DNA of 64,000 nucleotides, taken from positions 930,001 to 994,000 of the forward strand of contig MU004183.1 of assembly GCA_010093605.1 (NCBI GenBank). The letters are read 5' to 3'. The notes under the pieces were generated by a model. That model saw only the letters and a list, made by a program, of their open reading frames with translations. It searched no databases and was not told the DNA's origin. Positions 3,731-51,300 of the stretch are shown here, one piece after another. The position numbers were made by a program, and so were the translations under genes. Source of the DNA: Lophium mytilinum (Eukaryota). Position 1 is the stretch's first letter, and each line of letters begins with the position of its first letter.

Positions 3731-4582
3731 ATGGCTACACCCGGAGCCACCAAGCGCCTGACCAAAGAATACCAAGCCATCTCCAAAAGCCCGCCGCCCT
3801 ACATCATCGCGCACCCCTCGGAGCGCAACATCCTCGAATGGCACTACATCCTGACCGGGCCACCCGAGACGCCCTACGTCGGCGGCCAATACTGGGGCAC
3901 CCTCATCTTCCCGCCCGACTACCCCTTCGCGCCGCCTGCCATCCGCATGCACACGCCCAGCGGCCGCTTCCAGCCCTCGACGCGCCTGTGCCTCAGCATC
4001 TCCGACTTCCACCCCAAGTCCTTCAATCCGGCGTGGGAGGTCTCGACCATCCTGACCGGCCTGCTCAGCTTCATGACCTCGGAGGAGATGACAACGGGCA
4101 GCGTGCGCGCGACAGACCACGAGCGTAAACTCTTCGCGGCCCGCACCCGATGGTGGAACTCGACCGGCGGCGGCACCTCGACGCGCACGATCCCCGGCAT
4201 CACCAGCGTGCAGAGCTCCAACACCCGTGGGAACGGCGGCATCAAGGCGGGTGACGGCGGCGTCAAGTTCAGGAAGGAGTGGCCGGAGCTGGACGAGGAG
4301 AATTGGAGGATCTTGAAGGAGAAACGCATCGATCCAGTGTCGGGCATGACCGCGGCGCCGGAGAGTTCGCATGGCCCTTGCTCGCCCGAGGCGGCGGCGC
4401 TGCGGCGGCGACGACCGGGCGGTTCTGCGACGGGCGTCGGGGCGGTGGTGCAGGGCGGGCAGGTTGCGAGAGATGCGGGACAGAGCTGGCTTGGGAGAAA
4501 CAAGTGGCGGATAGTGTTTGGGGCTTTCTTCAGCTACATCCTGATTGCGCGGATGCTGGGAGAGGGCGTCTCCACCCCTTGA
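3731..4582 (+). CDS. UBC6: ER tail-anchored ubiquitin-conjugating enzyme E2 (Ubc6/UBE2J family), intronless
   Basis: MATPGATKRLTKEY start, TPSGRF and active-site RLCLSISDFHPKSFNPAW, hydrophobic C-terminal anchor WRIVFGAFFSYILIARML. Divergent from SAM50. Confidence 0.95.
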   Translation: MATPGATKRLTKEYQAISKSPPPYIIAHPSERNILEWHYILTGPPETPYVGGQYWGTLIFPPDYPFAPPAIRMHTPSGRFQPSTRLCLSISDFHPKSFNPAWEVSTILTGLLSFMTSEEMTTGSVRATDHERKLFAARTRWWNSTGGGTSTRTIPGITSVQSSNTRGNGGIKAGDGGVKFRKEWPELDEENWRILKEKRIDPVSGMTAAPESSHGPCSPEAAALRRRRPGGSATGVGAVVQGGQVARDAGQSWLGRNKWRIVFGAFFSYILIARMLGEGVSTP

Positions 4583-7500
4583 GAGCTAGGGTTCAGGCGA
4601 GGCTTTGTGTACTAAAATAAGAGCGGTGTTCTTGGAGTCTTCAGATTTTGGGATGGGCAAGCAAGGGGTTTGATATCAACGGTTCGGTCTGTGGCATTTC
4701 AAATTCCCCATTAAGATGTATGCTATTGGAGCACACTAGCGTTCTGCGGAACGAAACAATCAATGAATCATTCGTTCACTCGCACACTTTTGCATCAAAG
4801 GTATCACGCCCCTTCCACTCAGCTACATCAGAAGGGCAATAATCTGCCCTTGTCTTCAAACCCTCTCCTCACGTGACCGCCTACAACCACGTCTGTGCCC
4901 AGCTCGAAGAGGAAATATACATTAGAAGAAGGGTCAGGTTTTCCAATTAGATACACTACACATAACCTATTACAGCTTCTGAAAAGAAACCTCGCCTGAA
5001 GCCCCCTGTTCATGGTCACAACCGCAGACGTAGTCAAGCAATAAGCACGTTTAGTCTTTATATATATGCGCGCTGGGAAAGAAGGGTACTAAGTTGGAAA
5101 GTATTTCGTATGTCCCGTCGACTCTTGTGCAACGAGGAGTGCGTTATCTTCTAATAGGTTATAGCATACCGTCTTGGCTTGTGATCAAGTGCTCGCTTGT
5201 TAGATTTACAAAGATTGGGTGGGGCGTTTGGGGATGCATGGTAGCGCTCTGGTGCAACCGTGGAGTCTGTGGTAGGTGGTCTTTACTAGAGTGCTGCAGC
5301 TGAAAAGGGAGTGTTGAAGTGTGTGAGTATACTCTTGTGAAGGCGAGAGGCAAGACTACAGCTTAAGAACAATACAGATGAACGTGTGTGAAGGAATGCA
5401 GGTTTGGGGCTGGTCCCGCTCGTGAGCAACACTGCCTCTCCCCTTTTCGTACAAAATCTGTGCCTGCTTAGCTCACTCTTCGCAGCCAGACCAATAAAGC
5501 CTTTTAATAACATCCTGTGAAAGACGCAGCTACCCGTACCTTGCGACACGCTGCATCTTCCTTATCTCCTTGCGGCCCACCTAGACTCTCGCTTTCGTAC
5601 ATGTCTTGGTGCCAGTACCACCGTTTGTGTCAGGATGCCTCGTGCTTGACCATCTTGTCCTTGACTTGTTCCCCTCAAAGCGACCTCATCCTTTTCAACG
5701 CCTGCTGCCTCTTGAAAAATGCCGCATAGGCACTGCACGCCTATACCAGGCCTCAGATATCGGCATCACCGCCGCACCCCCAATCCCAGCCCTTCCACTC
5801 GCAAGCGTCCCGCCCTCGCATCATCTGCCAGGACTGCGTCCGATAGTCGTGCAAACGCCTGTTCTATGCCACAACATCCGTCATTGAGCTTGTGGTAGCA
5901 ACAAGCCCAGCCGTTCTCACCGCGCCATCCCGAACATCCGCTCCCAGAAGATTTCGGCATCGATCAGCCACGGCGCCATCGCGTCTAGGGCTTGCTCTGG
6001 ATTCATCCCGGTAGCTTGGCAGGGCTCGAGCAGGCCGATGGCGAGCACGAAGATGTCGCAGGTAGAGATGATGGTGCGGACGACGTTGCAGCTAACGATG
6101 CCGTGGGGCATCTGGGCGGTGCTGGAGTGGTGAACACTATTTCAGGTGGTAGGTGGGTATCAGATTCTGCTGACAATGCAGGGCTCGGATTGTCGGAGAT
6201 GTGAGTGTAGGGCCTCGTGGCTCCTTAGTGCCTCCTCGTCTCTGTGGCTGTTTGCTACCGCGAGACTGTTGCTGTGATACCGAGTGCGCGATTGCGGAGT
6301 TGTACAGGTGATTCCCAAAGATAGTAAGGTCGTGGGGCGTTGTCGCGAGGAATTGATATTGGAGAGAAGATTGTCTCAACATCAGCGATGGGGATCTGGG
6401 CAAAAGAAGGTCTCGGAGTCAGACGGGAGGCGAAGGGAACGTGTGTACGTCTGTATTATGGTGACCTCAGCTGCTGCGAGGGTCAGCAGAGCAGGTGATT
6501 CCTTGCATGAGATTCGTACTTTGCGGAAGACCACGCCCGATAGGCTAGACTTGGCTCCATAACGTTTGACTTGCGGGCTTTTCAGTGCGTAGAGTTTGTT
6601 GCTGTACTCCTTTTCGATACCTAGGAGGAGGCGTTTAAAGGGTGGTAGGCGGTGCGATTGGTGTTGAATCAGCAGGTAGACCCTGGTCGAAGGTGGATTT
6701 CTGCAAGCGGGTTGGCTCGCTTGAGGGTGAAGAGTAGCGAATCAGCGGGCGAGACCTCCGATAGAGACCTTGCATGGTCGAAGGCGGCGAGATTAGTGCT
6801 GTTTGTTACTTGGGAGGCAAATGCAGTCAAAAGGGATAGGTATTCCGGAGCAACGGATAGGTTTGCTAGACAATGAAAGACTGCGCAGTGCTGAAGTGCC
6901 TTCCGTGTTCAGGAACGGGCACCAGGATCTCGAAAACGCGTCGAAGCTAGGAAGTATTGCCACTCGCTGTGTCTTATTGCTTGTCCAGTCCGGAGCTGTT
7001 TTTTTGCTGCGCTGGATCGTGGCGTAAGCTACTGATATCGATTTTGCCGCACATCCTTCACCTTCAACCGCTTCTTTGGTCCACTAGTATGCTTCGGAAG
7101 ATGCTGCAATCGTAGATCACGCTCTCGTATTCATTAGATTCATGGTTCGTGATCAGCCTAGTTTCTGCGAACATGTCAGTCATCAGTTGGACATTCCCTG
7201 CAGTCACAGCCCTAAGACTTTTCTGAAGGGGGAAACCGAAAGTCCGCGATGGGAGCAGCTCAGCACGAATGATCTGCCTAAGCATGAAGATGGTTTCGAT
7301 ATAGATGGGCTCTAGCTGCGTATCAACGTTAGAAAGGTAGACGGGAGTGCCAGCAGGTCCTAGACTGGGGACATATGCGCTCCATTCGTTTCAGACACAG
7401 AATGCAGAAAACTGCACAAGAGATACTGGCATCTTAGACCAAGTAGGCACTCGAATCAACGATGATATCTCAGTTCAAGGAATCTGATATTGATATCAGG

Positions 7501-9101
7501 ATTTCGAGGGGTTTAAGAAAGTGGGATAGTCAAGTGCACTTGTTCTTCTGGTGACTGGTTTCTCGATAACCTTCGGCAATGTCGTTCGCAGACCCAGTTC
7601 ATGCGGTACAGTACCTTAGCAGAAAGCTCATGTTGGAGGAATTCCACATGCTGATAGACGGCCCACTTGCTGCTGTTTGGGGTGCTTCAGCGTACCTGCC
7701 TATGGTTGTGACAAACAGACCTGTCAGTGGATCCAATAGGAGGCCACAGAATAAAGTTTTGCTAGGCTCATCATGGTCACCGAATTCTTCAGGTATGCCA
7801 GTACGGGGGGCCTTGGACTATTACACTGATTCAAAATTAAAGCATGCTGGATAGGGAGTCTTTTGAAACGAACCACGCTTGGTGCTCTTCCCTAGACCCG
7901 AGTGCGTGCTGCTCTTCCTTGCAAGAGTGTGGGAGGCGGGTCATGAGGCAATGCGCGTCAAGGAGGGGCAGGTGAGCATCAAGCACACTGCCACCAATGG
8001 CGATACTGATAGCTGCAGCGACCTTCTAAAGCCAAGCGGGCGCAAAAGCTTACCTAACGCCCTGATAGTCAGTTTGGTGAGAGATGTCGTTGTAGTGCAT
8101 TTCTGTGGTTGCATGTGGCGCTGTGAGCTGTGCACTCGATTCCTTCGACGATCAACGCGGCAAATAGGGTTGCACTGAACGACATTCTCGGGCAGCCCAT
8201 CTACTACACAGCCGTGTGCGAGGAGGAGGTTCCGATGAGGCACAGAGAATTGAAAGTTGAGAGGAAAGAAGAGAAGAGAAAGAGAAGGGCGCTAGAAGAC
8301 ATGGGTGATTGGGGTGGCCCCTGGCAAGCGAGTAGATCATCGCCACCGACCCTGGGACGACACCCGTTGTCAGGAAACAATGCGTGCCAGTTTAGACCCA
8401 TTACAGCCTGAATTGCCCATCGAACCCCTCGATTTCCTGGCTGGACTGTATGCTGCAAAGCACTGCTGGGTCTGGGGCGTCGAGAAAGCATCCCTGATCC
8501 GCCATACCCCCGAGTCGGCACGGAAGGGACCTCCGAGTACGTTGCTGCTGCCCGGCCAAAGTCCATCACTCGACTTCTTCCTGATGAACCAAAGCTCATG
8601 CCCTCAAGCCTACTAGTCTTGGATCACTCGCCTGGGCGTGCAAAGGTCTGGGCAAGCTCAGGCTTAGGGCCCGCCACTGGGAGTGGTGAAGGCCGTGTTC
8701 CACTGCATCCAGTCCTTGTGTCTTGCCAAACGATGTCCAACCTCTCTGCGGCAGCCCGTACTCTGAGCAGAGTAGCACTGCTATACTATGCGAGCGGGCA
8801 GTCACAGGTATGGCTAGAAACATCCTGGAAGGGTGTCTTGCCGCCATTGGAAGCCGATGCGGCCTGTAATATATGACCCTTGTGCTCGGTAGCAGGCCAG
8901 AATGAGTAGATCCTGGGGGGAAGCCTGAGTGCTAATGGTATTCTGGGGTCTCTAGCAGCGTCCGTATCCGTCAATGGCTGGCGCCGGCTAGCGGCGCCGT
9001 TGGAGCGGCGACCAAAACGTGGGAGTGAATGTGTCTTGGCAGACGCACCTGCCTCTTGAGCAGGTGGCCACACGCCAGTTCACACGCAGAGCAGCGGCCC
9101 G

Positions 9102-21282: not shown

Positions 21283-22701
21283 ATGCCTTCAGAATTAGAG
21301 GATGTATGAATCTATAGTTTTGACAGCTAAACTCTCGCATACTGACCATTTCATGCAAGCTCGTCGAGTTTCTCCATCATGGAAACACCCAAATCCGACA
21401 AGTTGGTAAGTTCTTTCACTGGATGCGCCACCTCTTATGACTCTGTAGCTAACGGACATACCTCTCTAGCGGTTGAACATCTGGTCGGCTACTCTGCGAC
21501 GCATACAACACTGTTCAAGAAAGACCAGCTTCTCCCTGTGAGAGACCTGAAACTCCTGGTCAAAGATTATGCAGTACGAAATTTTATACCCCTCATGAAA
21601 GCATATCTGATTAGATTTCTGCCAGCCGATAGCCAAAAATGTCATGACCATTCTCATCAACATATCTCATGATCAAGAGGTCTTAGAATGCCTTGCCAAA
21701 GACGATGCTTTCCTAGAATTGCTATTAGGGCGGATAACCGTATGTTAGTTCTCCGTTCATACTCAACAGGCAACGGAACTATTCTAGAATGATTGCTAAA
21801 AACATCAGAGCGCTAAAGAACCAAACGCAAACGAAATAGCGATGCTTCTCGCCAACATGGCCAAATCAGACGACATGCAACGGGTACTAGAACTTCAACG
21901 AGATATCCCGAATGAGCTATCAACCTCGAAATGGGCCATGGACCAGCTACTCGACTGCTTCGTTAAAGGCGCCGAAGGACGCTACAACAAGCACGCCGAC
22001 TACGACTACCTCTCCTACTTCTTCGCCGACCTCGCAAAAGTACGTTAAGCATATTCCCAACAATATCAGATTCTCACAGCTAACTTCCTGCACTACAGTT
22101 CCCAAAAGGTCGCGCTTACCTCACCACCCCACAGCCCCACGACGCCAACATAATTCCCCTGACCAAACTCATCGTCTTCACCGAGCACGCCTCAACCATT
22201 CGCCGCCGCGGCGTCGCCTCCGCCATCAAGAACTGCGCCTTCGACATCCATGTCCACGACCGCCTACTCTCCGACGCCCCCACCACCGGTGTGAATCTGC
22301 TTCCCTACATCCTATTACCAATCATGGGCGGCGAGGAGTACAGCGACGAAGACACCGAGGGAATGCTAGACGACCTGCAACTACTCCCTCCCGACAAGGA
22401 GCGCGAGAAGGAGGCGGACATCATAAAGACGCATATCGAGACGCTGACGCTGCTGACGACGACGAGGGGGGGAAGGGAGGTGTTGCGGCGGATTAAGGTG
22501 TATCCGATTTTGCGCGAGACGCATTTGCATGTTGATGATGAGGAGGTCAGGGAGGCGTGTGATCGGTTAGTGCAGGTCATTATGCGGGATGAGGAAGGGG
22601 AGGGCGAGGAGGAGAAGAAGGGGGATAAGGGGAGGATGATTGCGATGGAGGCGGAGGATGAGGATGAGGATGAGGATGAGCAGATTGTGGACATCTTATA
22701 A
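21283..22701 (+). CDS. HGH1: Protein HGH1 (FAM203), eEF2 chaperone; 6 exons
   Basis: Spliced MPSELEDLVEFLHHGNTQIRQV, with MLLANMAK, YDYLSYFFADL, IRRRGVASAIKNCAFD, LLPYILLPI, LQLLPPDKERE and VYPILRETH..ACDRLVQVIMRDE. Confidence 0.92.
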
Positions 22702-22849
22702 CGCCGTTGGGTAATGTAGGAATTGGATGGCGCTGTATCCGAAATGGCGGACTTAAATCTATCAGTGATTGGACCTACGGTGCTAGCGTGAGGATTAGGC
22801 ACAGGGTGTGCTCTATGTCTACGCCTTATGGTATCCTTCGAGGGCACGC

Positions 22850-23490
22850 TGTGGGGATATTTGTTGCAAGTACTTCCGAATCTGACCGTGTGAAACCACT
22901 TTAGGTAGGCGCGGTGTAAGTGCAGCGTCCACGACTTGGGGCCCCTTCGTACTTGCTCTTTGGTGAAAAGTCTTGCAAGTACTCACGCATTTGACCGTGT
23001 ACAGGATACTTCCTTAAACATAGCGTGATCATGCAGTGAACGGTGAATAGACGTGTTGGGGGTCCTTTTGGTAAGAAGTATTGCAAGTACTTACTAATCT
23101 AACCGCGTTAATGTAATTTTTAGACAGAGCGTGACTATGGATTAGACGCCGCGTAGATGTGTCGTGAGGCTCTTTTGGTGAGAAGTTTTGCAAGTATTTA
23201 TCAATCTAACCGTGTAAATCTATTTTTGTCAGACAAAGAGTCCTTATGGATTGAACGTAGTGTAGACGTGCCGGGGGGCCTTTGGGTGAGAAGTATTACA
23301 AGTACTTACGAATCTGACCGTGTAGATCTATTTTAGATTGGAACAGTGTATTAGTAGAGCGAACGCCGCGTAGACCTGTTGGGGGGAGCTTTCAGCGAGA
23401 ATTATTGCAAATACTAACGGATCCAACCGCGTGAGTTCGATTTTGGTAGAGTCGGCGTGCACTCGGAGTGGACGCTGCGTGTATGTATCC
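22850..23490. repeat. Degenerate tandem array, six copies of a ~108-bp unit
   Basis: TTGCAAGTACT-like anchors at 22864, 22973, 23081, 23188, 23296 and 23405 (spacing 107-109). Approximate core consensus TTTGGTGAGAAGTATTGCAAGTACTTACGAATCTGACCGTGT. Confidence 0.92.
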
Positions 23491-23599
23491 CGAAACTCCT
23501 CAGTTGGTGCGAGTACCATTCAAATGTGTCTTTAAACACACGTATTATACAGTTCCTATACAGGCCAGTATACACAAGAAACCCACTCCAGAGGTATCG

Positions 23600-25148
23600 C
23601 TACCGAACATCGATATGCCCATGAGCGCCAGACAACTCTTTCACCATAGAGATCGCGCCGTCGATATCACCCTTGTTGTACAGGAACAAACCCTGTAGTG
23701 CCGCAGTACTGATAGAGCTCGTCAAGCCCACCTCTTTTACCTCCGCCATGAATCTCTTTCTCCCCTGGCCATCGATGTCAATGTCCGCGAAGAAGCGATC
23801 CCACATCTGCTCGATCTGCCATTCCGTCGCCTCGCCTAGTCGAACTGTCATGTCTATCCTCCCGGGCCGGACGAGCGCTTCATCTAGTCGTTCGATGTGA
23901 TTCGTAGTCAGGAAGATAATCCGTTCCTCACCACTCGCAACGCCGTCTAACGCATTGAGAAGACCAGAAAAAGTGACCGTGGCACCGGTATATCCGTCTT
24001 CGCCAGGGGCTCGGCGATTGATAAAAGCCGCATCGGCGTCTTCGAGGAGCACAATTGTTCTTTGTGGAACCTTCGTAAGAAGATGGTTGAGCCGGTCATC
24101 CGTGAGCCCACGCTCGCTGACATTTAAAATCGCGATGTTGAAATCAAGATGCCCCGCCAGCGCTTGTATGAAAGAGCTTTTGCCTGTTCCCGGGGGCCCG
24201 TAAAGCAGATAGCCCCTCCGATACGGGATTCCTCTATCCAGATACCAGGTCCGGGCCCCCAGAAACGCCTGAAGATCCTCGACTATTTTCTCTTTGACGC
24301 CACGCTCCAGGACCACGGATTCAAGTGGGCGTTTCCGCTTTGGTTCCCCGAATTGCGACCAATCTGGCCCCATCGAATTGTATATTATAGTCTTTCCTTC
24401 AGTCCGTTGCTGTGCGAGCTGATGCGCTTCGGCGAATATTTGCTCGAATATATTACGGTGGGCGTAGAGGGTTGTGAGAGTGATTGTCTCGAATGGCGTG
24501 CCGGAGGCTAGATCGAACGATTTCTCGCGCTGTCGGTTGACCATGATGAAAGAGCGGCCATAGCGTAAGATATAGCGCCCGTAACCAGGTACTAGGGAGA
24601 AGTGTGCGTTGGAGGTCCCGCCTGGGAGAGGGACCTGCGAGGTTTGTATTTGGAGGTGGTGGAGTCGGGGATTTAGACGTTGGACCAACGCAGATAGAAA
24701 GCCTTGCTTTGAAGCCTGGCTATGACCCGTAAGCTATTGGTATCGTACTTCAATGGTGAAAGTGGATGTATACCCTTCAACCGTATGACTGCCCGCAAGC
24801 TGTGCCCTCTGATATGCCGTCATCCATTGTAAAAGCCATTGGTATGCATGGTCGTGGCGCGTTATTTCTAGATCCACGATCATGCGCCGTCGAATTAGAT
24901 CTGCACCTTGCCTCAATCCCTTCTGTCCAATGCGTGCGCCGACGCCGAGTGCTGCGAGCCCAAATCCCTAGCCATGAGAGTTAGTCTTTGAGCTTCAAAG
25001 CTAGAACATTGCGACTTACGGCAGTGAAAAACGGATTGCTAGTCAGCTGGGAGTATATCGAGCTGATGCCATCGCCGCTGCCGATGTTGACATGTTGGGC
25101 CAACTGGCGCGATGCATCCTGCGGTCCTGGAGGGTTGTTTTGGTCCAT
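23600..25148 (-). CDS. BCS1: Mitochondrial AAA chaperone BCS1; 3 exons
   Basis: NPFFTAGFGLAALG TM segment, PKRKRPLESVVL, WYLDRGIPYRRGYLLYGPPGTGKSS (Walker A), LLEDAD, FSGLLNALDGVAS and ALVRPGRID. Confidence 0.96.
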
Positions 25149-48583: not shown

Positions 48584-49399
48584 AGATGAGTGATGATTTT
48601 CTCTGGTAGCGTAGAGGTTCCCTGGATTTAGACATGTCGTAAACGAAGAAAAGAAATGAATGGAGATGATGTTTCCCGTCGGAGGCGGTCTCTAGATTAC
48701 GATCTTGTTGCGGCGTCTTCAATATGAGCCGAGATGTTCGAAGCTCTTCTTTTCTGGGTCGAAAGTTGTCACGTCATGTAGACGCGGCGTGCACATGGCG
48801 GCTAAATAGCTTTGTAAAACATTGCTTCTAATCGAGGCGAAGACGACAGTAATGAGTAGTAGAAGTGGCACAAAGCATCCACGGTACGACTTTCAAAATT
48901 AATTTCGAGCGGTTCGATTGGGGAGTAGTTGCACTTCCATGAACGAAAGAGGCACGTGGAGGCAGGGACGACACGTGTTACGCCGCCTGTCCATCGAAGG
49001 AAGTTATGGCGCGGTTAGATTGGGAAGTATTTGCAACTGAAGAGGCGAAAGAGGTACCCTGATGAAGCGACGGCATGTGGCACGCAACGTGACATTTATC
49101 TACGTGGTCAGTTCTATAAATTTTACTGTGTCGGTACCAACTAATTTGTACACGACGCTGTGAGGGGAGCCCCAGAAGACTCCCAAGAATAGCACCAGAT
49201 GTCAAGTTCTCGACCCTCGAAATCACCTTTTCATTTTCCTTCCACTGTTGACTACATTTAGGGCGCTGCGGCTACCCACCTCACATTGCAAAGCATCAAT
49301 CAATCTCTCTAGAAATCTATTCCCATTGAAGCTACCTAGAGAATCGAACTCCTCTCATGCTATGAGCAACCACGTCAAAGTCAGCTAACCATGCACACC

Positions 49400-51300
49400 T
49401 TATTTCGCCCATCCAGCAACCGCCTCATCAACATCCTTCCTGTACCTCTGCTGGCTCTCGCACTGCTCAAGGAAAACCTTGTACTTCGCATGCAGCAGCT
49501 TCTTGAGCTTCTCGTCCGTGGTCGGCTTGACCATCTTACCCGCCTTACTGTACCGATCCATGATATTCCACAGCGGCTCGCTCTTGCCCTCCTTATTCGT
49601 GCTGGCGGCCTTCGCGCCCAGCATCGCTGCGCCGTGCACGACGGCTGCATGGACGTAGCGCGGGATCAGCACGGGCATGTCGCAAGCTGCCGCGATCAGG
49701 TCCATCAGGATGCTGTTCTGACACTGGCTGCCGGACATGAAGATGGAGCTGATGACGTGGCCGGATTTGTTCATCGCGTCGACGATCTGGTGCGTCTGCA
49801 GCGCAATAAACTCCATGGTCGCGTAGTAGTATAGCGCGAGCCCGTCGAGGGACTTGTCGGAGCTGAGGCCGATCACGGAGCCCTTCATGTTGGGGTCTGC
49901 GACAGGCGAACGGTTGCCGAAGAGGTCGCCGTAGAAGAAGAAGTGGCGCCCGAGCCAGCTGACGCTGGGTGCGTTCTCTTTCTCGACCATCTCGCGGAGG
50001 TGCTCGTTGAGGTAGTCGTAGATGTTTGTGTTGAAGGTCTCGGCGACCGAATGGGCTTCGTTGAAAGCCGGGTGGGTCTCGATAACGTGTCTGAGCAGTT
50101 CTCCGGTGGCGCTCTGCCCGCCCTCGGCCATCCAGTAGTCCGGGAGAAGGACGTCGCGGTATGGTCCCCAGACGCCCTCGACGAACACTGGCTTCTCGGA
50201 CATGGCGAGATGGCATGTCGAGGTGCCGGCCACGGCAGCCAGACGAGTGAACGCTTGAGATACGTCGTTCTTTGCGTGGCCGGGGTCCAATTCATTCGAG
50301 CCGAGCTTCACCTTAGCACCAACAGTGCCGATCCACCCTGCATACGCATCGATGACACCGCTGCCAATAGCAATTCCAGGTGGCAGACCCATATCCTGGG
50401 CTGCTTTCTCGCTCAAGGTTCCAACTAACTCACCGGCTGTGAGGTATTTGCCGTTCTACGCTTAGTATTAGCAAATAATTTTAAGAATTCAGGGGAAGGG
50501 AGCGTTACTACTCCATCGACGCCGCCCATGCGCTTGAAGTTGTCCTCGCACAGATCCTTCAGACCGATTTCAGTCAGGAAGTCTTCCTGCCATCCCTTTA
50601 CACTACCGTCGACGCCAACTGGGACGAAGCCCTGTTTGCAAACAACGCTGCAGTAACTCCGTGTCTCCCCTCCTGTGGCCATATGTGTAAGAGCATCAGT
50701 CAAGTCGTAGAACTTGCAACGATCGAACAGCTCCTTAGGCATATTATTTTTCAGCCAAAGGACCTTTGGAATTTCCATCTCGATGGACATCTTGCCGCCA
50801 ACATAACGGAGCAGGTTGTGGTTCGTCGCATTGATCTTGATTGTCTCCTCCACAGGCCGGTGGTCCAGCCACAAAATGACATTGCGGTCCAACCCGTCTT
50901 GATTGTCAAAGTTTGGTCCAGTGACATTTACTGGCTGGTCTGTGTCTTCGGAGAAGACGGCAAGAGAGCAAGTAGCATCGAAGCCAATGCCTCGAATAGT
51001 GTCGCCGTCGATGTTGTGCTGGTCCATTGCTCGTCGAATAGAAGAGCAGATGCATCGCCAGATATCGGTGGTGGACTGCTCGTAGTAGCCAGTCTGGGGC
51101 TGCCATAGACCAATAGTCTCGGACGCGAGGCCTACAATGTCGCCCTGATCGTTCATGATGCAGGCTCGCGCGCTGCCGGTACCGACATCAATACCAATGT
51201 AGTGATCCATGTGTGGGTGAAGTTCATTGCGGGGATCGGTTGACAGCTGGCGGGATGGTTTCCGGTGCTGCTGAGTGCGGAAGGGCATTTGGCCGGCCAT
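49400..51300 (-). CDS. FGGY-family carbohydrate kinase (D-ribulokinase / YDR109C-like); 2 exons
   Basis: YIGIDVGTGSARA, GIGFDATCSL, ILWLDHR, IDAYAGW, AGTSTCH, EGGQSATG and DLFGNRSP; intron 50508-50456. Confidence 0.94.

Follow-up and report, generated by a model that had tools for sequence, protein, structure and literature searches.

Two adjacent units of a decaying tandem repeat, located between two convergent genes in a 64 000-nucleotide stretch of contig MU004183.1 of Lophium mytilinum (hereinafter, the window), provide the splice signals of a 90-nt intron that is precisely removed in an RNA-derived contig. The intron itself is an ordinary U2-type intron. The explanation that we favor, with an estimated probability of roughly 0.65, is that this is a repeat-born, lineage-restricted 3'UTR intron, which was derived from an old array by intronization of transcribed repeat DNA, an origin resembling that of protointrons.

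The RNA evidence for the intron comes from one contig of one run, in one study (run X3, labelled only 'RNA?'). This contig, record 4 of the run, is 3702 nt long, has a depth of 490 and aligns to the window with 0 mismatches. It is judged to be cDNA-derived because four introns of the HGH1-like gene, all upstream of the stop codon, and one intron of the BCS1-like gene are removed from it, all of them bounded by GT..AG on the strand of the respective gene; the region, then, is transcribed. The contig is colinear with the window over 22099-23219 and 23310-24719, and at the joint between these two segments, which contains no ambiguous bases, the skipped sequence has the ends CT..AC on the plus strand, that is, GT..AG on the minus strand. 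Precisely this intron, with the donor GTAAGT at 23309, a CTGAC motif and the acceptor TAG at 23220, had been predicted from sequence signals in the first-pass annotation, and it is removed exactly as predicted. The donor belongs to the conserved core of unit 5 of the repeat array, and the branch site CTGAC, which fits the CTRAY consensus and is located ~10 nt before the acceptor TAG, comes, together with that acceptor, from the T-rich tail of unit 4. Thus, GT and AG ends, a CTRAY branch site and precise removal in RNA, the hallmarks of a U2-type GT-AG intron, are all observed. The signals compare well with those of the five other verified introns of the region, and the intron is longer than any of these neighbors (90 nt vs 52, 54, 59, 64 and 69 nt, a small sample).

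The X3 assembly contains the spliced path alone, which suggests that splicing of the 90-nt intron is efficient, although contigs give no information on strand, transcript ends or isoform ratios, and rare isoforms are dropped from them. None of the X3 contigs of this locus extends over 23220-23309, a weak hint only. The contig merges both convergent transcripts, so that the spliced molecule could be a separate antisense or read-through RNA rather than one with the 3'UTR of the BCS1-like gene; the BCS1-like mRNA appears to be the more plausible identity, with the donor of the intron located 290 nt past the stop codon of this gene.

The two genes flank a gap of ~900 bp (22702-23599), which the array fills. 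The last exon or exons of the HGH1-like gene, on the plus strand, match the Pfam domains DUF383 and DUF384 of the HGH1 family. The protein encoded by the BCS1-like gene, on the minus strand, matches BCS1_N, AAA and AAA_lid_BCS1; because the lid domain ends at residue 366 of 377, only 11 residues before the stop, this stop codon is considered natural. The HGH1-like protein has an acidic Glu/Asp tail at its C-terminus, encoded by a perfect (GAGGAT)4.5 repeat at 22654-22680. The second HGH1 intron (21573-21629) is represented in run X3 by a 52-nt skip with GT..AG ends, and in runs X4 and X5, from organism C, by a 55-nt skip with GT..CG ends and three extra letters; the difference probably reflects a displaced exon boundary or an effect of aligning a diverged relative. 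In X4 and X5, the coding parts of the two genes are covered, and 22729-23621 is not.

The array itself was delineated by several methods (Table 1). TRF reports a period of 108 with 72% matches over 23048-23429, and an alignment anchored on the conserved core widens the array to six full units of 107-109 bp each, with the spacing between successive cores in the same range. All six units are recovered by nhmmer, with E values from 3e-23 to 8e-27. On the HGH1 side, these are preceded by a degenerate remnant unit, u0, in which 22754-22773 pairs with 23323-23342 as a short direct repeat (D5). The head-to-tail arrangement of homologous units and the regular period identify the array as a tandem repeat of the minisatellite type. 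Because the six units are only 49-75% identical in pairwise comparisons within the alignment, the array is old or else heavily mutated.

Table 1. Coordinates of the genes' ends, repeat units and introns discussed in the text (positions in the window)
Feature	Position	Strand	Remarks
HGH1-like gene, stop codon TAA	22699..22701	+	ORF end at 22701
Degenerate remnant unit u0, HGH1 side	22712..22818	.	Weak part of the array: 31-44% identity to full units
Six tandem full units	22819..23467	.	TRF, core spacing, alignment, nhmmer
Unit u1	22819-22927
Unit u2	22928-23035
Unit u3	23036-23142
Unit u4	23143-23250
Unit u5	23251-23359
Unit u6	23360-23467
Predicted 53-nt intron GTAAGA..CTAAC..TAG	23071..23123	+	Motifs present; not seen spliced
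Predicted 55-nt intron GTGAGA..CTAAC..CAG	23178..23232	+	Motifs present; not seen spliced
Confirmed 90-nt spliceosomal intron	23220..23309	-	X3 record 4 joins 23219 to 23310
Predicted intron GTGAGA..CTGAC..TAG (23325 or 23336)	23286..23336	+	Motifs present; straddles the confirmed minus-strand junction, outside the reach of the contig
Conserved 30-nt core of unit 5	23294..23323	.	Equivalents start near 22862, 22971, 23079, 23186, 23403
Predicted 91-nt intron, weak donor GTTAGT	23328..23418	-	Motifs present; not seen spliced
BCS1-like AAA gene, stop codon TAG	23600..23602	-	ORF 23600-24733
Second, more decayed array of the same family	48770..49160	-	Two clear units and one or two doubtful ones, ~105-106 bp apart

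The units are best preserved in a 30-nt core, with 80% pairwise identity compared with 54% outside it, a level reached by 1 of 5000 column permutations. Allowing up to three mismatches, the core pattern is found in five of the six units of the array and at one other site, 49012-49036, with 0 occurrences expected by chance. The core includes the hexamer ACTTAC on the plus strand, which is the donor GTAAGT on the minus strand. The dinucleotide composition of the array (22819-23467) differs from that of the whole window, with a TpA/ApT index of 1.39 and a (CpA+TpG)/(ApC+GpT) index of 0.78, compared with 0.74 and 1.21, respectively; the two values for the array are within the RIP-positive range. 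As the sole cause of the divergence of the units, RIP was rejected, given that there are only 0.97 transitions per transversion between the units and no clean signature.

The conservation of the core could indicate that the array is mainly an element that functions at the DNA level, the core serving as a binding site for a protein in each unit, for example, as a boundary, a terminator or a roadblock between the convergent genes, with splicing as a by-product. Apart from the difference in identity between the core and its flanks, this possibility is supported by the maintenance of the period at 105-109 bp in two arrays (the second one is described below) and by the location of both arrays just downstream of genes. 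However, uneven mutation or gene conversion could also yield a conserved core, and the candidate site that was searched for, the TFIIIC B-box consensus, matches none of the six units with up to two mismatches. The whole window contains 40 such matches, compared with 61 in shuffled sequences, and a unit of the second array matches at 48911-48921; a TFIIIC B-box or ETC-like array was accordingly rejected. Overall, a DNA-level element appears rather unlikely, and, should it be real, it would be compatible with the favored explanation for the intron.

Several further readings of the array were considered and rejected. A search of Rfam with E values up to 10 gave no match in the array and three chance-level matches outside it, and ARAGORN detected no tRNA in the array. 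No fold of either strand is better than those of shuffled sequences, with z-scores between -0.93 and +1.55 for the 12 folds of the units and a z-score of -0.10 for the spliced 90-nt intron; a structured RNA on either strand was accordingly rejected. A coding repeat is rejected given that the period ranges from 107 to 109 and the ORFs that traverse the array are all short. An array of spliced-leader RNA genes was considered because, in the tandem units, a donor is followed by a U-rich, Sm-like tract, and was rejected given the divergence of the units, the read-through of the plus-strand donors at 23071 and 23178, the lack of an Rfam match and the lack of a stable fold.

The density of splice motifs in the array calls for closer scrutiny. 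All 13 motifs to which the first-pass annotation assigned positions are present, nine on the plus strand (GTAAGA at 23071, CTAAC at 23099 and TAG ending at 23123; GTGAGA at 23178, CTAAC at 23206 and CAG ending at 23232; GTGAGA at 23286 and TAG ending at 23325 and at 23336) and four on the minus strand (GTTAGT from 23418 and TAG ending at 23328; GTAAGT from 23309 and TAG ending at 23220), and the minus-strand sequence also contains CTGAC and TACTAAT. The claim that other units carry additional GTAAGT or GTGAGT donors and that two donors are mutated is borne out by the hexamers at the six minus-strand donor positions, namely, GGAAGT in u1, GTGAGT in u2, GTAAGT in u3, ATAAAT in u4, GTAAGT in u5 and GTTAGT in u6: three of these are strong, one is weak (GTTAGT) and two are dead. 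The plus-strand donors end in A (GTAAGA, GTGAGA). Under a permissive model of donor, branch site and acceptor, which was fitted post hoc to the motifs of the first-pass annotation, the array contains seven donors with a complete intron, compared with a mean of 0.59 over 634 tiles of 649 nt; the value of seven is reached only by two of the 634 tiles, both overlapping the array, and by none of the 1000 first-order Markov simulations. When only strict GTRAGT donors are counted, there are two in the array compared with a mean of 0.18, and this number is reached by 16 of the 634 tiles and 50 of the 1000 simulations. Because the units are homologous, all of them being copies of one ancestral unit, the motifs are not independent, and the excess, which is real, yet provides no independent evidence of function.

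Among the minus-strand pairs, only in that of unit 5 and unit 4 do the donor and, ~90 nt away, the branch site and the acceptor all fit the consensus. The donors of unit 3 (paired with unit 2) and unit 2 (paired with unit 1) are good, with no consensus branch site or acceptor to accompany them, and the donor of unit 6 (paired with unit 5) is weak. Thus, the only complete set of signals is the set that is used, as predicted by the model under which splicing is a by-product.

These observations bear on the original proposal that the array consists of introns and micro-exons in series, spliceable in both directions, a cassette that would provide HGH1 and BCS1 with several 3'UTR introns and tune the stability of their mRNAs through nonsense-mediated decay (NMD). 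The proposal gains some support from the fact that one of the four predicted junctions, 23219/23310, is real, from the density of intron-like triples in the array, which no other tile of the window equals, and from the placement of the donor-like hexamers of both strands where the unit is better conserved. The remaining three junctions are absent from the X3 contig, and two of these it spans fully: the sequence of the putative 91-nt minus-strand intron is retained, being part of the colinear segment 23310-24719, so that the 18-nt micro-exon (23327-23310) postulated next to it is not formed, and the putative intron starting at 23071 is retained within the colinear segment 22099-23219. The donor at 23178 is passed unspliced as well, in the path that runs to 23219. 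In this contig, then, no plus-strand splicing is seen at either 23071 or 23178; the unspliced candidates are absent from the dominant X3 assembly, which does not prove their absence altogether. Further points against the cassette are the terminal A of the plus-strand donors, the death of two of the six minus-strand donors, the origin of the motif density in the homology of the units and the existence of a second array of the same family without donors. What stands of the proposed serial 3'UTR introns is a single minus-strand intron that reads as part of the 3'UTR of the BCS1-like gene, whereas serial or bidirectional splicing is not supported, and the cassette as a whole appears quite improbable.

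The repeat unit belongs to a small dispersed family. The second array in the window is located in non-coding DNA, in the gap that follows a minus-strand ORF ending at 49400. With the profile built from the six units, nhmmer detects this array at 49037-48979 (E 1.3e-5) and at 48933-48879 (E 2.1e-4); it keeps the core without a splice donor, the corresponding hexamers being GGAAGT and GGGAGT. Throughout the 64-kb window, nhmmer matches only these two non-coding arrays and detects no copy in the introns of the window. In the DNA run X1, two other contigs, of 21 kb and 6.4 kb, contain diverged pieces of the unit, and one of the X1 contigs matches 23273-23312, that is, 40 nt of unit 5 including the donor, without a mismatch. 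The copies on other contigs of X1 and X3 correspond to 23273-23312 and 23407-23462 of the window. A second RNA contig of X3, of 4446 nt, carries the locus of the mismatch-free copy, indicating that this other locus is transcribed as well. Altogether, the family includes at least four loci, at least two of which are transcribed, and all the copies seen are arrays or fragments of arrays in non-coding DNA.

The mismatch-free 40-nt copy at another locus, with the donor included, counts against the favored explanation, under which the splice signals would have arisen by chance, without selection. The position of the donor inside the best-conserved 30 nt of the unit possibly reflects selection on splice signals. 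Taken further, the family could be an intron nursery, in which the core is kept in part as a consensus 5' splice site, the unit boundaries are pre-adapted for introns of ~90 nt that employ the branch site and acceptor of the next unit, and arrays located in transcribed DNA create new, efficiently spliced introns. We consider this scenario highly doubtful; if true, it would represent a route to intron gain that relies on unstructured, tandem units and differs from both introner-like elements (ILEs) and MITE-type introners.

The first-pass annotation also suggested that the unit is a relative or precursor of ILEs, a mobile, self-propagating intron family that would be tandemly amplified at this locus. 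The features of ILEs that we used for comparison are taken from PMC3609843, PMC4457414 and, reportedly, van der Burgt 2012. One of the four features examined, a length greater than that of regular introns, is found here, the 90-nt intron exceeding its five neighbors of 52-69 nt, and the family is indeed dispersed, further copies being located in the second array and on three other contigs, two of DNA and one of RNA. The remaining three features, near-identity of the copies, coincidence of the element with the intron and a stable structure, are not observed: the copies are 49-75% alike, the 90-nt intron spans two units instead of coinciding with the 108-bp unit, and neither the intron nor the units form a stable fold. 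With no intronic copy detected in the 64-kb window, and with all copies found in arrays or fragments thereof, the kinship with ILEs is not upheld and is extremely unlikely. Just as hard to credit is the notion that the 90-nt skip comes from a deletion in the genome or from misassembly in X3. The organism label of this run does differ from those of the DNA runs, and repeats tend to vary in length and to be misassembled. However, the skip begins and ends precisely at GTAAGT..TAG, contains a CTGAC branch site and shows no microhomology at its boundaries, and over ~3.2 kb, all other bases of the contig agree with the window. The skip also measures 90 nt rather than the period of 108, which argues against a deletion by repeat slippage.

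The phyletic spread of the array was addressed by scanning metagenomes. An exact scan with a degenerate 25-nt core pattern retrieved 0 loci, and a scan with the last exon of HGH1 retrieved 12 loci with 54-89% amino-acid identity. Any match to the unit in these 12 related loci is no better than E 2.2, and BCS1 homologs are missing from all of them. The nearest relatives among them, L002 and L003, with 88% amino-acid identity in HGH1, retain this gene and the gene upstream of it, and their similarity to the window stops at ~22669; synteny breaks right after the HGH1 stop. Downstream (positions 4560-8495), these two loci contain no ~108-bp array and no BCS1-like gene. In L002, the one that was scanned against Pfam, an ORF for an MFS-type transporter is found downstream of HGH1, in the place of BCS1. 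Among the relatives found, and as far as can be seen from these sequences, the array and the BCS1 neighbor appear to be lineage-restricted. The absence of the array from the relatives does not date the intron because the whole region downstream of HGH1 differs in these loci.

The favored explanation, the birth of a 3'UTR intron from repeat DNA, can be outlined as follows. An old, decayed tandem repeat of ~108 bp, which is non-coding and belongs to a small dispersed family that retains a 30-nt core, occupies the gap. Most likely, minus-strand transcripts of the BCS1-like gene extend into the array, at least 380 nt beyond the stop codon, and there the spliceosome removes one 90-nt GT-AG intron, from 23309 to 23220. 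The core of unit 5 would simply happen to read GTAAGT on the minus strand, providing the donor, and the T-rich tail of unit 4 reads ..CTGAC..TAG, providing the branch site and the acceptor. The other sets of motifs, on both strands, would then be inherited copies of the unit, each with at least one degraded or weak signal. Under the 50-55 nt rule for exon junctions downstream of the stop codon, the distance of 290 nt is long enough for a 3'UTR intron that triggers NMD, provided that the spliced RNA is the BCS1 mRNA, and the mRNA may be exposed to NMD that depends on the exon junction complex (EJC).

The best conceptual match for this case, among known systems, is found in protointrons or, more generally, in the intronization of transcribed non-coding sequence. 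Protointrons are described as non-conserved splicing in UTRs and non-coding RNA, and those of yeast are typically spliced at ~1% (median) (Talkish et al. 2019, PMC6726248). The intron described here resembles protointrons in that a UTR or non-coding sequence of ~100 nt, derived from poorly conserved DNA, absent from the nearest relatives found and with no demonstrated role, is spliced. Unlike yeast protointrons, it was assembled only in the spliced form, so that splicing looks efficient, and unlike protointrons in general, it takes its signals from a tandem repeat unit rather than from unique sequence that has drifted.

The similarities to other systems are more limited. As with the ILEs of Dothideomycetes, a repeated family is tied, in a fungus, to a spliceosomal intron that is longer than the neighboring introns. 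In contrast to ILEs, for which hundreds of copies and stable predicted structures are described (PMC3609843; PMC4457414), this family consists of intergenic tandem arrays instead of single introns in unrelated genes, and in most of its copies the signals are not functional. Another parallel is offered by the gain of introns through tandem duplication, for instance, in the RdRp gene of potato, because the donor and the acceptor are located in adjacent copies; however, under that model, a duplicated AGGT within a coding exon supplies both sites (PMC4974935), whereas here, the donor and the acceptor are different parts of the unit, in an old array of six units located in a 3'UTR. Like satellite or minisatellite arrays that keep a short box, the array consists of head-to-tail units of ~108 bp, has a better-kept core of 30 nt and occurs at several loci, and unlike such arrays, it has one pair of units that is used as an intron. 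Finally, the spliced intron 290 nt past the stop codon of a gene of the filamentous fungal type is reminiscent of the 3'UTR introns involved in EJC-dependent NMD in Neurospora, where NMD responds to introns near the stop codon, according to PMC7746235, which cites Zhang and Sachs 2015; by this analogy, an effect on the stability of the BCS1-like mRNA is plausible.

This comparison leads to conclusions that are less far-reaching than the first reading of the locus, given that a bidirectional cassette, serial splicing and a mobile intron family are all unsupported here. What the locus would offer instead is a concrete, datable example of intronization, in which two neighboring units of a decaying 3'UTR repeat gave rise to a working intron. 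Examples of this kind illustrate how introns can emerge from transcribed junk DNA and how a new intron in a 3'UTR might bring the respective gene under the control of NMD.
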